This document shows positions 4,114 to 27,879 of a stretch of DNA of 31,544 bases, in pieces. Made by a program: the position numbers and the translations under genes. Each line of letters opens with the position of its first letter. Positions within the stretch are counted from its first letter, which is position 1. The notes beneath the pieces were generated by a model. That model ran no database searches, was not told the origin of the DNA, and worked only from the letters and a program-made list of their open reading frames with translations. Source of the stretch: a virus; the IMG/VR virus record IMGVR_UViG_3300018019_000438. The stretch is one strand, 5' to 3'.

Positions 4114-4771
4114 ATGCCTCCCACATCCATCGCGGATCGTACAACAACGAAGCATCCCGTCTGAGCAGAGCCTCGGGTGACGAATGCCTAGAAAGATGAC
4201 AAGAAATTATATCGTTGGTTTTGAGAACGGGTTCTTGATTGTAGTGCCACGTCTGGCCCATAGAATATCGGGGGTCGTTTACCGCTTCTATTCCCACGCT
4301 AGCCATGAATTCTCCAATCCATGCATCATCTGCATGCGGACAAGAAAATTGGGCGGATTGGTCTCCTGTTAAAAGTAATCCGGCTTGGGTCGAAAGCCAA
4401 AATCCTGCGCCATGTTGACAGAAACGAATATCACTGGATAACAATGGCAACTGCCCGATGTAGTCGGCTCTCTCAAACTGAGAATTGAGTAGTCTAGACG
4501 TGCTTACATACGTATCCGTGCATGCATTGAAAAAATGAGTATATCCGGCATCTAACGCCCATCGGACGGACGCCTGTACTTTAGCAGTCAAACCCGCAGT
4601 GTTGTCATCCGCGTCTACCGCTATTTCATCTTCGTGTTGTACGGTAGCCCCTCGTCCAAGAAAGAATTTGTACGGGATTAGACTCGTGCGCGCCCATGTA
4701 TTTCGGATGGCATCGTTACAACCTTTCACCATGTCACGCTGACAAGAAAGGATCAGAATAACGGGGCGCAT
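4094..4771 (-). CDS. GT31/Fringe/galactosyltransferase-like glycosyltransferase
   Basis: ILILSC..AIRNTW..YKFFLG..KVQASVRWAL..GYTHFFNACTDTY..DYIG..HGAGFWLS..DDAWIG; paralog of the adjacent ORF. Confidence 0.72.
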   Translation of the reverse strand: MRPVILILSCQRDMVKGCNDAIRNTWARTSLIPYKFFLGRGATVQHEDEIAVDADDNTAGLTAKVQASVRWALDAGYTHFFNACTDTYVSTSRLLNSQFERADYIGQLPLLSSDIRFCQHGAGFWLSTQAGLLLTGDQSAQFSCPHADDAWIGEFMASVGIEAVNDPRYSMGQTWHYNQEPVLKTNDIISCHLSRHSSPEALLRRDASLLYDPRWMWEAYEADIG

Positions 4772-5451
4772 GGTGCATATCCTATGTCCTGTTGGTAGGC
4801 TTCAAACATCCATGCAACATTATATTGTCCAGTTTTACGAGATAGATGACAGGAAATATTTTCGTTGGTGGGCAGGACCGGGGGTTCGTGAAAATCGTAA
4901 CTTTCTCCCATTGAATATCGGGAGTCTTCTGTTAGAACTATCCCTTCCTGCCGCAGAGTCTTTTGAACCCAATCATCCTCATTTTGGCCTATGCCTGGAT
5001 CGTTTGGAGTAGGAGTGATATCCGCGTTCGCTACAATGTGACCTGCACGCTCCGATAGCCAGTAACCTGATCCACCGCTCGCGGCGTTCCCGGCAAATTT
5101 CGGTCCTCCTGCCCATCCAATATAGTCCGCGCGCTCGAAATCCGAGTGCAGCAAACGATATGTGTTAATATAGGCATCTCGTTCCGCACAAAAGAAGTTC
5201 GTGTATCCTTCACGAATGGCCCATCGGATGGTATCTCGACGTTTGAAAGTTTGAGACTTGCGGTCGTCAATCGCATCTACCACCACTTCATCATCGTGTG
5301 TGGAGACGTTATGGATACCATAATCAGGATTGAAGGACCCAAGAAAGAATTTGTACGGTATGGAACTATTAGCTCCCCACGTCTTTCGAATCGCATCATG
5401 GGTGCGGATATCCACGCAACAGGAAATAAGCAAAATCACAGGCTTGCTCAT
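4753..5451 (-). CDS. GT31/Fringe/galactosyltransferase-like glycosyltransferase
   Basis: VILLISC..IRKTWG..YKFFLG..IRWA..GYTNFFCAERDAY..DYIG..SGGSGYWLS..EDDWV; start moved to MSKPV (ATGA overlap with upstream stop). Confidence 0.72.
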   Translation of the reverse strand: MSKPVILLISCCVDIRTHDAIRKTWGANSSIPYKFFLGSFNPDYGIHNVSTHDDEVVVDAIDDRKSQTFKRRDTIRWAIREGYTNFFCAERDAYINTYRLLHSDFERADYIGWAGGPKFAGNAASGGSGYWLSERAGHIVANADITPTPNDPGIGQNEDDWVQKTLRQEGIVLTEDSRYSMGESYDFHEPPVLPTNENISCHLSRKTGQYNVAWMFEAYQQDIGYAPCAPLF

Positions 5452-11355: not shown

Positions 11356-14002
11356 TTAGGCTGTTGCTGTTTCCGACAAAATACGTCGGAAGGGCAGGAA
11401 CGTGCCAGCGGCGGCAGGACGGGGAGTTACGACGAACTTAACAGGATTGTTACCCCAAATAACTTGGGGGATTGTGCATTTCTGACAATCTCACACAGTT
11501 GGATTCCTGTGTGCTCGGACTATTGCATCACCCCGAAGGGTGTCTTCTCGCTTAGTCTCTCACGGTGCTTTCGCTTCCGCCTCGTTGCCATTTCAGGGTT
11601 CGAGTCAATTAGAGAAGATTCTCATTCGCGGATTTCGCCACGATGAACCAATTTTACTTAGTTGTAACTAACCGCTCCACCTATTTCTCCGCCCGGGTCA
11701 AATGCACTCGGTGCGAATTCATAGATGTTTGCCTTGAAGTTGGATTCGTCCTTAATTTGTTATTCTTCGCAATCCGTCAACTAGCTTCTCTAGCTCTTCT
11801 AAAGAAGCATCCCGTTTCAAAACGTTGGCGCGTTGCGAGATGACCATCACATTTTCTTTGATATACCCTTTTTCAGGAATTCTTCGGTCAAGAGCAGGTG
11901 AATCGTCTTTGTGACGACCTGTTGCCACTTGTAAACGAATTCCCAAAAGCGGACATACCTCTGGAATAGTGATGTCATCAGGTGTGAGATCGAAAGGAAG
12001 ACCAAGCATCTTGGCACGGTGACGAGCCCGGCGAACCATATAAATCTTGTAACGGTCCCAGTCGGAAGAAACGCCCTTCCACCATTCTTTTCGATAATCT
12101 GATTTCGCTTTACGTAGTTCTGCATTCTCGGCATACTTCTCCCGAGCATGCTCCAGTATCTTGGCCCGATTGCGGGCATAATACTGACGAGCGTATTGCC
12201 GCTCTTGTTCTACTGTTGCAAAACCCATGTCTCACCCCTAACTCTGCATGTTACCATGCAGAACGGACTATATCATAACACCCAAACATTATACCACAAA
12301 TTCTGTAGTTTGTCAAGATGTTTCTCGCGTGTAGTCTCTACGGACTCTCTGCTTGCGCAGGTTGCCTCGGGATTGGCCTGAGGGGTATCAGGTGTTTCCC
12401 CGATATAGCGAGATTTTACGTACCCTGTGCCGTAACTTCATGAAACGGCAATGGTTAAGGAACGTCTTCAAAACCACCAAGAGCGATAGCGAACATCGTC
12501 TCGTCAGCAGTAATGTAGGTTTCCCAAGAAGACTTACCAGATGCGGGCAAGTTGGCAACCAACGGAACGTTGGTGCTCATAACGAAATCGATACCCGCTA
12601 CCGGGATGATTTCATTATCTTCTGCGAGGCCAGCTTCAATCCACTTCTGTCCTTCACGGGTGTACTTCTCGGTGTCGAGAACGCCGTTGTGAGTCAGGTC
12701 GTTAGCAACATCGTTAAGTATATAAGGTAATTTTTGTTTAGGATTTCTGCGTCACCGCAGGATCACTCTGCATGTCACCATGCAGTTCAGACTCTATCTT
12801 CATTCCATAAAATGGAGTGTTAAGCGTATTAGTCGTTGGGGATTCTTCGATTAGATGGCCGTGGTTCAGTGCTGATATTTTTTCTGCCAGCACCGCGCGC
12901 TTTTCTTGATTCCAACCAGTTCCCAATCTAACCCACTCAAGAGCGAGTTTAGCTTGTTCCTGCTTGATAATCATATACGGGATAACACCTAACAAAAACT
13001 TCTCTTTGTTTTTGCTGCCAGACAATTTCCACTGATATAAAAGTTTGGCCCGCAAAGAAGAAAAACCTCGTCCTTTGCGGTTGCTAACATCAGTCTGAAA
13101 TCGTCCACCAAAGTTGTGCAGTAGCCATTTGATGAGACGGAAATCTGTATTGCTAATTTTGATTCCCAATTCAAATCGCTCACCCGAACATCCGTCTGAG
13201 CGTTGACCACGGACAACGTAGATGCTTCCTTCACCATCTAAAATTCCGGCCACATACGGCCATGCGTTGTGATCCATCGAAGTCTTTCCTCCGTCTTGTC
13301 TTATTTCACTAAACATTGTATCACATATCTGATACTTTGTCAAGCTAAATGTAAGATATTAACGGATATAGCTTAATTTTGCATGCACCCTTGTTGATGC
13401 ATGATTCCACGCATTCTTCCACCGGCAAAAGGTCGTCCGTTCTTTCCGCGAATTGTAGCCACAGCCGTGTTAAGAACCGCACGGGTCACGTAGCTACCAT
13501 CAGAAAGCTGAACGCTTGCAGTTGGGTCCGTAGAAACAGCAGCATCAAAGCCTTGCTGAATCAACGTATCAACCACGAGAGCGCCTCGATACCCAAGCAT
13601 TTCGCTGAGTTGTTCGAGAGGCTTTCCAATATCCACAGCAAGAGCAAAGTCAGAAACGTTGACGTAATCAACGTACTGACCTAGCACTGCTTGGATGCTC
13701 GCTTCAGTTGGCACGATTGGTGTGCCCACGGTGCCTTCTACGGCAGTCGGGGGCGGGGTATTGATGGGTCCACCACCAATATCAATCGCGTTTGCTGAAA
13801 CGTTCGCAGTAAACGGAGCCAAGTTATACGTGTAAATTTGTGTCGTGCGACCTGCGTTCTTCGGAATCTGACGTTCTGCGGTCAGCCCTTGGAACCCAAG
13901 ATGCGCGAACAAAGCACGTACTGCCAAACGATCATAAAAGACCGCTTGGGTGCTTGGCAAAGTTGAGCCGATAACAAATGAAGCCTGTGAATTACTAGGC
14001 AT
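11356..14002 (-). CDS. Major capsid protein (N4-gp56-like family), four exons: 13397-14002, 12458-12727, 11660-11750, 11356-11441; 350 aa after splicing
   Basis: Exon 1 (202 aa) has STQAVFYDR, IPKNAGRT.Q, QYVDYVNVSD, LGYRGALVVD and ends GIMH. Joining gives GIMH|PYILND...GGFEDVP|DESNFK...VSYN-F-KFVVTPRP...ETATA*, in frame (606+270+91+86 nt). Follows portal and scaffold genes. Confidence 0.85.
11442..11659 (-). mobile_element. Group I intron 3 of the capsid gene (218 nt, no ORF)
   Basis: P1 exon AACU pairs with GGUU (U.G at the splice site); P3 UCUUCUC/GAGAAGA; P7 GAGACUA/UAGUCC; P9 hairpins; ends in G (CCUG) and restores the capsid frame. Confidence 0.82.
11752..12228 (-). CDS. Intron-encoded HNH-like homing endonuclease
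   Basis: CPLLGIRL...SPALDRRIPEKGYIKENVMVISQRANVLK beta-beta-alpha-Me-type motif. Confidence 0.8.
   Translation of the reverse strand: MGFATVEQERQYARQYYARNRAKILEHAREKYAENAELRKAKSDYRKEWWKGVSSDWDRYKIYMVRRARHRAKMLGLPFDLTPDDITIPEVCPLLGIRLQVATGRHKDDSPALDRRIPEKGYIKENVMVISQRANVLKRDASLEELEKLVDGLRRITN
12288..12316 (-). promoter_or_regulatory. sigma70-type promoter inside intron 2
   Basis: TTGACA-17 nt-TATAAT with TGTGG before the -10. Confidence 0.8.
12738..13277 (-). CDS. Single-motif LAGLIDADG homing endonuclease
   Basis: YVAGILDGEGSI motif, ISNTD..LI.WL...FGG, YQWKLS, IPYMIIKQEQAKL; start at MDHNAW with GGAGG SD. Confidence 0.9.
   Translation of the reverse strand: MDHNAWPYVAGILDGEGSIYVVRGQRSDGCSGERFELGIKISNTDFRLIKWLLHNFGGRFQTDVSNRKGRGFSSLRAKLLYQWKLSGSKNKEKFLLGVIPYMIIKQEQAKLALEWVRLGTGWNQEKRAVLAEKISALNHGHLIEESPTTNTLNTPFYGMKIESELHGDMQSDPAVTQKS
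13315..13343 (-). promoter_or_regulatory. sigma70-type promoter inside intron 1
   Basis: TTGACA-17 nt-TACAAT with TGTGA before the -10. Confidence 0.7.
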
Positions 14003-17986: not shown

Positions 17987-19777
17987 TTATCCTCGATATA
18001 GACTTGCAACATTAGTTGAATTCACCGCATCAATATCCGTGCTTTCACCTTCTCCTGCATGCGAGTCCGGTGCTTCGGGCGGAAGTTCAGGCTCCCATGT
18101 GAGAATGGGCCCGCTAGGTTTCAAACTCTCAATGGTCTTAGGAAAGATCAGCGGGCGATAGTATTGCCAAGCCTGCGCGATGCAATCAGGAGCATCGTCT
18201 TTACGGCGCTTGGCATCAAGCGTCCATTTTTCAAATTGAGAGCGGACATCATCAATGAACCCGACATTGGAGTTGATAAAGACATGTCCGTCTTTCATGG
18301 CCGATGCCAATACCGCGATACGGACATTCTTTGCATTCAATTCGTTGTTCGGTAATTCCCATGTGATAGACTTGAACGGTTTATCGTTTGGCTTGGCAGT
18401 TCTTCGTACAGCTTCATTGATCTGATCTTCCAGCCAACGGACGCCCATGGCGTCTTCGATGCTATGGCCGACAATGGGCCCGAAATATTCCGCTGTCCGA
18501 TACAACTGAACGATGGCGTTTGAAACATCAGTACCATTGTTGTAGTGTGCCAGAACAACCTGCACAACCCACATTCTCATCGTGCTGTTCTGAAATACCG
18601 CGATAATGCCACAGGAATAATCTGATTCACTTTTCTTGCGTCGGCCAGTAAATGCAGATGCTAAATCCCAGTGAACAACAACTGAACGGTCATGCATGGG
18701 AATTTGCAGAAGATCGTTTGGAGATGTGATCTGTCTCTTCAGAATTGCTTCTGTGAATGACTTTGGCGTCTCGTCCAAAGACGCATCAAGCAAATATTGC
18801 TTGTAGAAATCAGAACGATTCCGGCGATAGCGTTTGAATAAGAAGTTTGCATTCAGCTTCTCAGGCCAAGTAAGATCGACATCATCAGGAGTAAGTTGGC
18901 CGTTCTTCTCTCTCTTTATCCGTTCTTCTATTTCTTTTGGCGTTCCATCTTTACGGAGCGTCCATGCGGGCAAAACAAAATAAGAAACTGTCTCACGTCC
19001 AGATTTCTCTTTGTCTTCCGCGCCTTTTCGACAGATGTAAGCGGGTAAATCTTCTTCATGCCATTTGGTGCCCAAAAACATCCGATATCCGCCCGGCTCA
19101 ACTAGCTCGTCAGTATCATCGTATGTGCCGTGGGTTTTTTCGCAATTCTCTAAATTGGACGAATTGATTTCGTTTGTCGCGTCGTCCAAAAACACAAGTT
19201 CATAGTGGCCTCCAGCTTTTACAGACTCAAAGCTGGCAAGGGAGATGGTTGGGTCTCGAAGGTCTAGTTCAGGGTTTCGCTTTGGAGTTGTGAACTCTTC
19301 AAGTTTGATATCTGATTCTTCAATCGCCCATTCAGGAAACAAATGCCGAATAACTTGATTGGAAAAGAATGGCTTTCGAGCCATTGCAAGGATGCTCTTA
19401 GCTTTATCAATTTTTCCTGACATGATGAGAATACGAATGTCAGGAGAACACAAAATAACTTGAGTTAGAAAGGCCGCTCCAATTGTAGATTTGAGCATGC
19501 CTCGGGAAGCCAATACTACAAACTCATCCCGTTCATCCCATTCAGAAGAATCTTTGTGAGGATCAGGCTGAAGGAACGAGTCAATAATTTTTCCATGAAC
19601 CTTTTCCAGAAGTGTTGGAAACTTCTTGGAGTTTGCAGGACGCAAAACGCAGTTAACCAGAAAACGCAAATCAGTCTGGATTCGAATTTTCACGTTGTCT
19701 TGTTCTTCCTTAGACAACTTCTGCACATCGGGCAGTGTCAATCGGAAGTTCAAGTCACCGAGATTTGAGATGCCCAC
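17987..19777 (-). CDS. terL: Terminase large subunit
   Basis: Walker A-like LASRGMLKST, Walker B LVFLDD, LGTKWHEED, nuclease motifs HWDLAS and KDDAPD. Confidence 0.9.
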   Translation of the reverse strand: MGISNLGDLNFRLTLPDVQKLSKEEQDNVKIRIQTDLRFLVNCVLRPANSKKFPTLLEKVHGKIIDSFLQPDPHKDSSEWDERDEFVVLASRGMLKSTIGAAFLTQVILCSPDIRILIMSGKIDKAKSILAMARKPFFSNQVIRHLFPEWAIEESDIKLEEFTTPKRNPELDLRDPTISLASFESVKAGGHYELVFLDDATNEINSSNLENCEKTHGTYDDTDELVEPGGYRMFLGTKWHEEDLPAYICRKGAEDKEKSGRETVSYFVLPAWTLRKDGTPKEIEERIKREKNGQLTPDDVDLTWPEKLNANFLFKRYRRNRSDFYKQYLLDASLDETPKSFTEAILKRQITSPNDLLQIPMHDRSVVVHWDLASAFTGRRKKSESDYSCGIIAVFQNSTMRMWVVQVVLAHYNNGTDVSNAIVQLYRTAEYFGPIVGHSIEDAMGVRWLEDQINEAVRRTAKPNDKPFKSITWELPNNELNAKNVRIAVLASAMKDGHVFINSNVGFIDDVRSQFEKWTLDAKRRKDDAPDCIAQAWQYYRPLIFPKTIESLKPSGPILTWEPELPPEAPDSHAGEGESTDIDAVNSTNVASLYRG

Positions 19778-20554: not shown

Positions 20555-20989
20555 TTATTTACCGTTCTTTCTAAGATATTCTACTGCGGCCAATAAAATA
20601 CTCTCATTATCTTTTGCATGACCCAACAAGAAATTACACGTAGAACAAAGAATTCCACGAATAACAATCTCGCCTGTTGTAACTTCTGCAAAATGATCGT
20701 GGTCAACACACCATTTTTTGGCATCTGGAATGCCGCAAATAGCACAACACCTGTTTTGAGATGCTAAAATGCGCTCTTTTTCTTCCAAACTTATGCCATA
20801 TAATTTCTTATACGCATATCGTCTTTGATAGAGTGGGTCTTTCATAAGGCGGTCCTTATGATACCGCTTGTCGTAAACTTTCTTCTCTTCGACATGCGCC
20901 GCCTTCCACTCTTTAGACTTTTTAGAAGCATACACAGGATGAGCAGATTGCCACTTTTTATTATAAATGGCCTTCTCTTCCTTTGTCAT
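20555..20989 (-). CDS. Endonuclease VII-family homing endonuclease (free-standing)
   Basis: YGISLEE...QNRCCAICG...VDHDH...IRGILCSTCN..LG.AKD...AAVEYL. Confidence 0.88.
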   Translation of the reverse strand: MTKEEKAIYNKKWQSAHPVYASKKSKEWKAAHVEEKKVYDKRYHKDRLMKDPLYQRRYAYKKLYGISLEEKERILASQNRCCAICGIPDAKKWCVDHDHFAEVTTGEIVIRGILCSTCNFLLGHAKDNESILLAAVEYLRKNGK

Positions 20990-24685: not shown

Positions 24686-24850
24686 TTATTTTAGCGCGCG
24701 AGAAACTTTCGCCCCGCGACCGCAGTTATTGCACTCCCAGCCATGCAGGCCGTGAATCGTGCCCTTCTCACCTTTTGATTTTCCAGTGGGGGTTTTTGTT
24801 ACAGAACCTTGGCAGGCAGCACATGAATAGTTGTATCGCGTTGAATTCAT
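24686..24850 (-). CDS. small zinc-ribbon protein
   Basis: CAAC...CNNC, 54 aa from MNSTRY (ATGA overlap). Confidence 0.6.
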   Translation of the reverse strand: MNSTRYNYSCAACQGSVTKTPTGKSKGEKGTIHGLHGWECNNCGRGAKVSRALK

Positions 24851-25275
24851 TTCTTCTCCCCGAGATATTTTTCCAAATATGCTGCGGCCAATTTGCAAGT
24901 AACAGGATCATCCTGTAGAAGACCAAGAGCCATGTTGCATTTTCTATGAACTAATCCTCGATTCATTTCGGTAACATGGGAGTGATCTACAACCGCCTCC
25001 ATCCCTTTATCTTCCGAGAAAGGTTTCAAACATACTCCACAACAATTATTTTGAGCCGCGAGCATCGCAACAAACACTTCTGCGCTTATACCATATTTCC
25101 ACATTCTATAACGATCTGAATGATACCGTTTCTTTTCAGGACCGCCCATCAATCTTGCATATTTTAATCGGCCACAAACTCTACAAGAACGACGACGATG
25201 TTTATCCCAGCAAGTATTCTCAGGAGTAAATTCGTGCCCATGTTTACAATGAGTCTTCGTCCACTTATTTGCCAT
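24847..25275 (-). CDS. Endonuclease VII-family homing endonuclease with N-terminal THCKHGH..T..NT motif
   Basis: KYGIS...QNNCCGVC...VVDHSH...RGLVHRKCNMALG..DD; start moved to MANKW. Confidence 0.85.
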   Translation of the reverse strand: MANKWTKTHCKHGHEFTPENTCWDKHRRRSCRVCGRLKYARLMGGPEKKRYHSDRYRMWKYGISAEVFVAMLAAQNNCCGVCLKPFSEDKGMEAVVDHSHVTEMNRGLVHRKCNMALGLLQDDPVTCKLAAAYLEKYLGEKK

Positions 25276-26131
25276 TGCCGACTCGGGCAACATACTCACA
25301 GCAGGCGTTCGGATCAACCTTAATTCGGCCATCGGAAGTGCGCGGCTGCTTTGACTTCTTCAACATGTCATCCTGTCCGCAGGAATTATCCACAGATCGA
25401 AAAAATTCACAGTTAGCACAAGAGAATGGCCCCTTGTTCGCAGCGGGCTCGTATCCAGTTCCGGTCTCCCCTTGAACCGCAGATATGTCAATTTGTATGG
25501 AGTGATCGGATTCGGCTTCAGGATTAGACTTGAAAATCGGAATCGTGGTATACTCCGCGATCAGTGCAATGCCACCGGAGCTAATAATATCCGTCGTCTC
25601 GCCCAAATACTCATCGCTGTTCGCGCCGGTCTGCAGGTTCCACCAGTACATCACATTTGAAACGTGGGCAACAACCAAAACTTCGGGGTCTTCCGTGCTC
25701 TTTTCTTTTTCAATTATCTTTAGAAGGTCTTCGGCAAACTCGTGCTGACGATATTCAAACTCATTGATCGTTTCGCCATTTGGAAATCTTTTGTTCTTGT
25801 TGTCAAGAAATGGCTGAATAGGGTGATCTGCTTTGGATTGCCCTTTGAAATCGCCAACATTCAAAGGCAGAAGGCGATCATCAATTTCAATGAACTCGAC
25901 TCCAAGATACTCCGCGATAATAGCAGCAGTCAAGACTGCGCGTTGTAGAGGGGATGATATGATCTTTGAAAACGGCTGCTTCAGCTTCTGAAGAAACTTG
26001 CCTTCTTCATGAGCAGATCGAATACCATCTTCGTTGAGTTGGGCGTCAGGACCATCAGACCATCCGCGATAACGTCCCGATTCATTTAGGACAGTCTGAC
26101 CATGTCTTGCGATAAAAAAGAGACTGCGCAA
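25265..26131 (-). CDS. Histidine phosphatase (phosphoglycerate mutase family) with C-terminal Cys-rich domain
   Basis: IARHGQT, ISSPLQRA, FPNGET, VVAHVS; C-terminal CANC...C...CC; TTG start with AAGGA SD. Confidence 0.85.
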   Translation of the reverse strand: MRSLFFIARHGQTVLNESGRYRGWSDGPDAQLNEDGIRSAHEEGKFLQKLKQPFSKIISSPLQRAVLTAAIIAEYLGVEFIEIDDRLLPLNVGDFKGQSKADHPIQPFLDNKNKRFPNGETINEFEYRQHEFAEDLLKIIEKEKSTEDPEVLVVAHVSNVMYWWNLQTGANSDEYLGETTDIISSGGIALIAEYTTIPIFKSNPEAESDHSIQIDISAVQGETGTGYEPAANKGPFSCANCEFFRSVDNSCGQDDMLKKSKQPRTSDGRIKVDPNACCEYVARVGNGK

Positions 26132-27595: not shown

Positions 27596-27616
27596 ATTGA
27601 AAATTGTGATGCCTTT

Positions 27617-27873
27617 ACGGTGCCCGTAGCCCGGCTTCTGTTCTCACTTGCGTAAGTAGAAGTCATTCGTCTAAGCAGCAACCCGGCAGTCTTTATCGGT
27701 GGTCAGCCTCTGCCCTATTTGCCTTGCATCGGTGTGGAGTCGTTTCGGACAAGTGGATAGAGCAAGGCTTGCCGAACTCTTACCCGTGCGCTTTCGCGCC
27801 CCGCAGCTTCCACGGCACCTTGACCAGATGGCCGGAACTTCCTCGGCTTTCGCCGCGACTTCTTGTTCACCGT
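27617..27873 (-). ncRNA. rnpB: RNase P RNA (compact bacterial type A-like, no P18, reduced specificity domain)
   Basis: P1 ACGGUG/CACCGU, P2 GAAGUC/GACUUC, P3 GNRA hairpin, CR-I GAGGAAGUUCCGGC pairing with CR-V ACAGAAGCCGGGCU (P4), P5 CAUC/GAUG, P6 UGGUCA/UGACCA, GCAAGGCAAAUAG, L15 GGU, UAGACGAAUGA, P19 CUUAC-GCAA-GUGAG. Confidence 0.88.
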
Positions 27874-27879
27874 TAAGAA

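Follow-up and report, generated by a model that had tools for sequence, protein, structure and literature searches.

Group I introns are found in the phage T4 genes td, nrdB and nrdD (sunY), with the endonucleases I-TevI, I-TevII and I-TevIII. There the endonuclease open reading frames (ORFs) are looped out of the ribozyme or trail behind it and have their own promoters, a stop codon comes soon after the 5′ splice site, and the introns home into intronless alleles at co-infection. The introns of Staphylococcus phage Twort are small, without ORFs and related to each other. Three group I introns interrupt a single Twort gene, orf142 (Landthaler and Shub, PNAS 1999, cited in PMC6669764 and PMC3706429). 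Introns have also been described in the capsid genes of mycobacteriophage LittleE and lactococcal phage Tuc2009, and splicing was shown by reverse transcription PCR for LittleE (PMC3706429). In the Jug jumbo phages, thousands of group I introns of ~206 nucleotides (nt) split essential genes (PMC12880540). Here we analyse a major capsid gene of a virus from IMG/VR (record IMGVR_UViG_3300018019_000438), located at positions 11356-14002 of the available stretch of 31,544 nt, hereafter called the window. The minus strand is the coding strand for all genes of the window. Our results make it highly probable that this gene, N4-gp56-like and the only major capsid gene of the window, contains three mobile group I introns that are unrelated to one another, and that three ribozyme-catalysed splicing events are needed for its protein of 350 amino acids (aa).

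A 350-aa capsid reading frame in four exons

A model that saw only the sequence and its ORFs had noted earlier that the capsid ORF stops at 209 aa, and had proposed that removal of 12728-13396, 11751-12457 and 11442-11659 restores one frame of 350 aa including an internal exon of 91 nt (the original prediction). Both statements proved correct, the second to the nucleotide. The ORF, at 13373-14002, is composed of exon 1 (202 codons) and 7 read-through codons. Joining 14002-13397, 12727-12458, 11750-11660 and 11441-11356 (606 + 270 + 91 + 86 = 1053 nt) gives 350 codons and one terminal stop. Exon 1 (13397-14002, codons 1-202) starts with an ATG at 14002, with GAGG 8 nt upstream, and ends in ...AUGCAU. 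Exon 2 (12458-12727, codons 203-292) begins with CCUUAU and ends in GUUCCU. Exon 3 (11660-11750) comprises codons 293-322 and the first base of codon 323, and exon 4 (11356-11441) the last two bases of that codon through to the stop TAA (11358-11356).

The spliced protein aligned by tblastn with intronless IMG/VR alleles (L005/6/7, L008, L010/11 and L012, the L012 alignment starting from residue 15) in a single frame over residues 1-350, with 84-88% identity. In blastn comparisons with the intronless genes, each junction was fixed to within 1 nt of the predicted coordinates. At intron 2 the 1-nt ambiguity is settled, since one choice alone puts a U before the intron and a G at its end. Exons 3 and 4 are adjacent in the intronless L005 (subject positions 1003 and 1004). 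Colinearity with intronless capsids, on which the original prediction had staked the proposed structure, was also observed with gp6, the annotated major head protein of Tunturiibacter phage Tunturi_3 (30% identity, E 3e-36), over all three junctions. This soil phage of Tunturiibacter, an acidobacterial isolate, is the nearest cultured relative found. The four-exon colinearity is far beyond chance.

The 209-aa ORF matched the phrog_1357 major head protein profile (E 4.6e-10) over only the first 199 of its 356 positions. The TIGR04387 profile (N4-gp56) matched exon 1 with 29.2 bits (E 5.5e-7, first half of the model) and the intronless allele L008 with 38.9 bits (E 6e-10), in both cases below the curated cutoff of 60 bits. 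The assignment to the N4-gp56 family made at the outset therefore holds in part: as judged by these profiles, the capsid protein is related to the family and is not a member by the NCBI cutoff. None of the exons or intron ORFs had a Pfam match, and the region matched none of 50,697 phage records by megablast.

Compared with L008, exons 2-4 carry 73 synonymous-only codons and 15 amino-acid changes. The pattern is the same for exon 1 (107 and 27, respectively), and these counts indicate that the exons downstream of the introns are still under coding constraint. In introns 1, 2 and 3 an in-frame stop is reached after 7, 0 and 0 codons, respectively, the last two as UAA right after CCU and as U↓AA across the exon 3 junction (↓, splice site), so that ribosomes on unspliced RNA would halt before reaching the ribozyme core.

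Group I cores in the three inserts

Each insert had been read as carrying a group I core, and this was supported for all three, by the covariance model RF00028 for intron 2 and by covariation for introns 1 and 3. Intron 2 (11751-12457, 707 nt, core at 12453-12244) matched the full model (1-253) with 64.1 bits (E 3e-14), above the gathering score of 50. Its boundaries, ..GUUCCU↓UAACC.. and ..UUAAG, place a U at position -1 and a G at the last position (11751). In P1, the exon sequence ACGUUCCU pairs with the guide GGGUACGU, with a U·G pair at the splice site, one U-U mismatch and a hairpin in L1. The same P1 was obtained by minimum-energy folding of the 5′ region. The loop of the L1 hairpin, UGAAGUU (12429-12439), is fully complementary to AACUUCA at +10 to +16 of exon 3 (11735-11741). 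This pairing, for which chance was estimated at ~2%, may hold the 3′ exon in the absence of a normal P10. The base before intron 2 (12458) is U (CCU) in the intron-bearing allele only, the intronless alleles having CCC or CCG, consistent with the U·G pair having been selected for or acquired by co-conversion.

The 3′ part of intron 2, after P9, contains a gene of 158 codons (11752-12228) for an HNH / endonuclease VII-type homing endonuclease, whose stop codon is directly followed by the terminal G of the intron. Its product matched the profiles phrog_3322 (endonuclease, E 1.5e-33), phrog_1035 and phrog_3118 (HNH); no match was found in Pfam or PDB. A putative consensus sigma-70 promoter, TTGACA-17-TATAAT with TG (12288-12316, 12/12 matches), is located in the P8 loop, 60 nt upstream of the gene.

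Intron 3 (11442-11659, 218 nt) has no ORF and belongs to a sequence family that we call X. In P1, AACU↓AA pairs with UUGGUU and forms a U·G pair at the splice site. The last intron bases are ..CCUG, with a terminal G (3′ end UAACAAUCCUG). The fold comprises P2 (~11645-11622), P3 (11618-11612 with 11549-11543), P4 to P6 (11604-11562), P7 (11559-11553 with 11522-11517), P8 (11542-11529) and P9 to P9.2 (11516-11453). P7 forms with P3 the pseudoknot that is typical of group I introns.

The family X core motif was found in at least 117 IMG/VR stretches. The structure assayed for covariation consisted of P3, P4, P5, P6, P6a, P7 and P8, with P7 crossing P3. Over 79 distinct cores, 99.3% of cells were in standard pairs and 19 of the 29 pairs were compensatory; when the partners were slid by 1-3 columns as a control, pairing fell to 36-42%. 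P7 contains a bulged base, as is usual for this helix, and is closed by a pair that alternates between G-C and A-U. A family X covariance model, R1, scored 119.8 bits on intron 3, which is itself in the model seed, and of the three introns recognised only this one. Copies of family X were located beside or in same-strand capsid homologues, many of them 24-35% identical, in 44 of 134 fetched cases, a count that is approximate because it is based on tblastn segment ends. L012, L015 and L018 carry a further family X core at 5316-5421 (R1 87 bits), ~600 nt upstream of the capsid start and presumably within the gene before it. At this site the window lacks a family X copy.

Intron 1 (12728-13396, 669 nt) is of another family, Y, and has an A as its last base (12728). 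P1 consists of 7 bp between the exon sequence CAUGCAU and the guide GUGCAUG (13388-13382), including the U·G pair, and P10 of AAGG/CCUU. Among the core helices, P3 is UUAAGC/GCUUAA, P4 is UCCG/CGGA, and P6 (CUUCGAU/AUCGAAG) closes the loop that carries an ORF. We compared this core with four related family Y introns, L017_B, L014_A, L017_A and L016_A. P3 reads UUUGGC/GCCAAA or UCUUGC/GCAAGA and P4 UCGG/CCGA in the relatives, and P3, P4, P5 and P6 stay paired despite the differing sequence in WIN_C (intron 1 of the window), L014_A, L017_A and L016_A. For L017_B the script found no P4 anchor and the helices were read by eye. Over 38 distinct sequences selected by a common P7/J8-7 motif, the closing pair of P7 is G-C in 20, A-U in 17 and U-A in one, with zero mismatches. 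On this comparative evidence, intron 1 has the conserved group I core helices P3-P8 with the P7 guanosine-binding helix.

The ORF of intron 1 (12738-13277, 179 aa) is a LAGLIDADG homing endonuclease gene with a single motif, ..VAGILDGEGS... It starts within P6 after GGAGG, spans P7, P3′, P8, P7′, P9 and P9.1, and its stop lies 10 nt short of the 3′ splice site. Its product matched I-MsoI by phmmer (E 5.5e-7, residues 7-118), I-CreI, and phrog_5046 (E 1.8e-19). There were zero matches in Pfam and NCBIfam, and a peptide-pattern search of IMG/VR returned no relatives. Upstream of the gene, loop L5 contains a putative sigma-70-like promoter, TTGACA-17-TACAAT with TG (13315-13343, 11/12 matches). 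L017_B, L014_A and L017_A contain similar promoter-like hexamers at the corresponding place.

The three introns of the window fall into three sequence families. We considered whether they are duplicates of one another and rejected this, since introns 1 and 2 share only a 34-nt J8/7-P7-P9 stretch and R1 matches intron 3 alone.

The terminal A of intron 1

The 3′ end of intron 1, ..AAAAAUUA↓CCUUAU, has an A where the terminal G (omega G) would be expected; shifting the reading by 1 nt would put a C there. To our knowledge, the terminal G is near-universal in group I introns and important for exon ligation. Three other ends were tried and rejected. Use of a G 19 nt upstream yields CAU AAA UCC UAA, a stop, and use of a G 16 nt downstream causes a frameshift. 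The in-frame pair GGAAU↓ with ..GCAG↓ is without a P1 partner and replaces a conserved His-Pro.

An A is observed at the terminal position in three family Y introns, WIN_C, L014_A (~4308-4318) and L017_A (~5166-5176), as ..UUA↓C or ..AUA↓C. The family Y relatives L165, L162, L157 and L025 end in ..AAACA plus six bases, the last of which is G. The P7 sequence is identical between the A-ending introns and their G-ending relatives. The non-G introns of L014 and L017 are at another site than that of the window, come from different samples and are ~70% identical. In the exons downstream of them, L014 and L017 differ by 90 synonymous versus 24 amino-acid changes. Such constraint on exons that follow A-ending introns argues that this ending, in intron 1 as well, is tolerated. 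When metagenomes were scanned for the intron 1/exon 2 junction, any base being allowed at the intron end, the only result was one unrelated chance match, and a search of the literature turned up nothing relevant on natural group I introns that end in A. Splicing with a terminal A, if true, would loosen a rule held to be near-universal for group I ribozymes, and it is the sole feature of this locus that could exceed a known phenomenon.

Introns in related capsid genes

Among 18 related contigs, five distinct alleles are intronless and the others carry one to three introns. Expressed approximately in coding nucleotides of the window's gene, the insertion points are ~167/168 (L014, L017/L019), ~175/176 (L016), ~336/337 (L017), ~606/607 (window, L003), ~876/877 (window), ~891/892 and ~933/934 (both L009), ~963/964 (L017), ~967/968 (window) and ~968/969 (L004). 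L017 has three introns, none at the positions used in the window and one only 4 nt from the intron 3 site. Family X occurs in four regions of the gene, with guides that fit the local exon (GUGCAUG, GAAG, GGGG, GGUU, GUAGG, GAG). Guide/exon pairs read from the sequence are GUGCAUG/CAUGCAU, UUGGUU/AACU↓AA, GUAGG/CCUAU, GGGUAUA/UAUACCU and GUCAAC/GUUGAU.

Since alleles 84-88% identical to that of the window are intronless and others carry different introns elsewhere, the introns appear to be dispensable, mobile passengers. This distribution fits independent invasions by mobile selfish elements, and not a conserved regulatory design. The four sites having introns long enough for an endonuclease gene lie where the gene is most conserved (91st percentile or above), which is weak evidence given only five distinct sequences. 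By homology, an endonuclease was identified for introns 1 and 2 of the window only.

It is possible, and we propose it tentatively, that this capsid gene family is an arena where compact group I introns repeatedly reach new sites by guide change alone, as suggested by family X in at least four regions in close relatives and also beside capsid homologues of 24-35% identity, and that at least one lineage (family Y, sites A and C) splices productively with a terminal A.

Numerous short proteins of 50-165 aa in public protein sets (P0004, P0005, P0007, P0011, P0012, P0020, P0065 and others) match parts of the capsid protein with 66-90% identity. Such fragments likely arose where gene callers met introns in other contigs and ended the gene there, and they hint at further insertion sites near residues 92, 135, 144 and 172.

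Proposed splicing pathway and alternative explanations

Three splicing events on one late mRNA, following the ordinary group I pathway, would produce the capsid message. The internal guide of each intron would pair with the end of the upstream exon to form P1, in which a U·G pair marks the 5′ splice site. This site would then be attacked by a free guanosine that P7 binds, and the released exon end would in turn attack the 3′ splice site, whose position is set by P10 and the terminal nucleotide. The LAGLIDADG and HNH endonucleases of introns 1 and 2 would be expressed from their own host-type promoters; the enzymes would presumably cut intronless alleles at co-infection, upon which the intron is copied in. 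Intron 3, which has no ORF and is 91 nt from intron 2, could have been co-converted with it or could have spread by reverse splicing. For splicing, homing and promoter use alike, we infer these steps from the sequence.

Several observations weigh against three functional introns. The check by a group I covariance model, recommended with the original prediction, succeeded with intron 2. With intron 1 only the 3′ half matched RF00028, at 29.5 bits (E 7e-5), under the gathering score; intron 3 gave no match even at E<=10 on 11400-11700; and at the gathering score the model found none of the relatives' introns. We read the failure with intron 3 as limited sensitivity of the model, because the family X fold held in the pairing test described above. 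P10 is weak or absent in introns 2 and 3. If the terminal A of intron 1 were not tolerated, the capsid gene would be dead, and an intact second capsid gene could lie outside the 31.5 kb covered by the sequence.

The last two points are the basis of one alternative: the gene is a dead allele made of endonuclease cassettes and ribozyme remnants, in which intron 1 at least fails in exon ligation, the genome being defective or helper-dependent, or the capsid being supplied from another copy. Intron 1 indeed has neither a terminal G nor an in-frame alternative G site, and the window does not cover the whole genome. However, the four exons are intact, and in the downstream ones, as in exon 1, synonymous differences dominate. 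Moreover, the diverged alleles L014 and L017/L019, from three metagenome samples, share the non-G ending while their downstream exons remain constrained, as counted above. P1, P10, P7 and the remaining core of intron 1 are intact, and tblastn revealed no second capsid match within the window. We therefore regard a dead allele as improbable.

The alternative that the introns are a selected device delaying or metering capsid production, raised with the original prediction as timing or dosage control, found no support and seems less probable still. Any capsid protein would require the removal of all three introns, and splicing of phage introns is generally known to depend in some cases on translation or growth conditions. 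Nevertheless, the closest alleles are intronless and others differ in the number and site of their introns, so that no intron set is conserved among the relatives; three sequence families, two of them with homing endonucleases, are the signature of independent selfish invasions. That the inserts are instead DNA-level insertions bypassed in another way, by protein-level splicing or translational hopping, is scarcely credible. Nothing specific speaks for it, and it was raised only as the Rfam model misses intron 3. The early in-frame stops in each insert and the change of frame between exons 3 and 4 exclude inteins, and inserts of 218-707 nt with covarying ribozyme cores are far above known bypass gaps. 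Invasion of one capsid gene by three mobile group I introns accordingly remains, in our view, by far the best account of the locus.

Other features of the window and significance

Two apparently free-standing endonuclease VII / HNH-type genes are found at 20555-20989 and 24847-25332 (phrog_2914, E 4e-28 and 3e-23, respectively), and homologues of both adjoin family X introns in several other contigs. We considered a split terminase gene and rejected it: the ORF at 17987-19777 alone covers the terminase profile, and the endonuclease gene at 20555-20989 looks free-standing. Within a tRNA array, 27612-27874 matched bacterial RNase P RNA with 74.7 bits, below the gathering score of 100.

If splicing occurs as proposed, the most abundant virion protein of this virus needs three RNA-catalysed splicing events, and standard annotation would give a truncated capsid protein of 209 aa. 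Two of the three introns escape the Rfam model, so introns of this kind are probably more numerous than present counts suggest. In the relatives, a single gene forms a natural intron-plus/intron-minus series that includes about ten insertion points and two families with retargeted guides; it should be useful for studying the spread of group I introns, together with their endonucleases, among phages.

Comparison with known systems

As in Twort orf142, one phage protein gene is interrupted by three group I introns and has short internal exons. In contrast to Twort, the introns of the window belong to three families, two carry endonuclease genes with putative promoters of their own, and the interrupted gene encodes the major capsid protein of an uncultured phage. 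With LittleE and Tuc2009 the window shares a group I-type intron in the major capsid gene that is inserted after a U and carries a LAGLIDADG-like endonuclease gene. It differs from them in having three introns in the gene instead of one, and its relatives have introns at about ten points. The endonuclease gene of LittleE is on the opposite strand, whereas both endonuclease genes of the window are on the sense strand.

The placement of the endonuclease ORFs, the promoters of their own, here putative, and the early stop recall the introns of T4. Those, unlike the ones described here, are in genes of nucleotide metabolism, with one intron per gene, and all end in G. Abundant compact introns in essential genes, often without an ORF, together with many HNH and LAGLIDADG endonucleases and gene callers that report fragments, are features shared with the Jug phages. 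In these gut jumbo phages the split genes are terL, nrdD and the DNA polymerase gene (PMC12880540), whereas the target here is the capsid gene. Taken together, capsid-gene introns, phage genes with three introns and intron-rich phages have all been published already, and the window is a clear added case.

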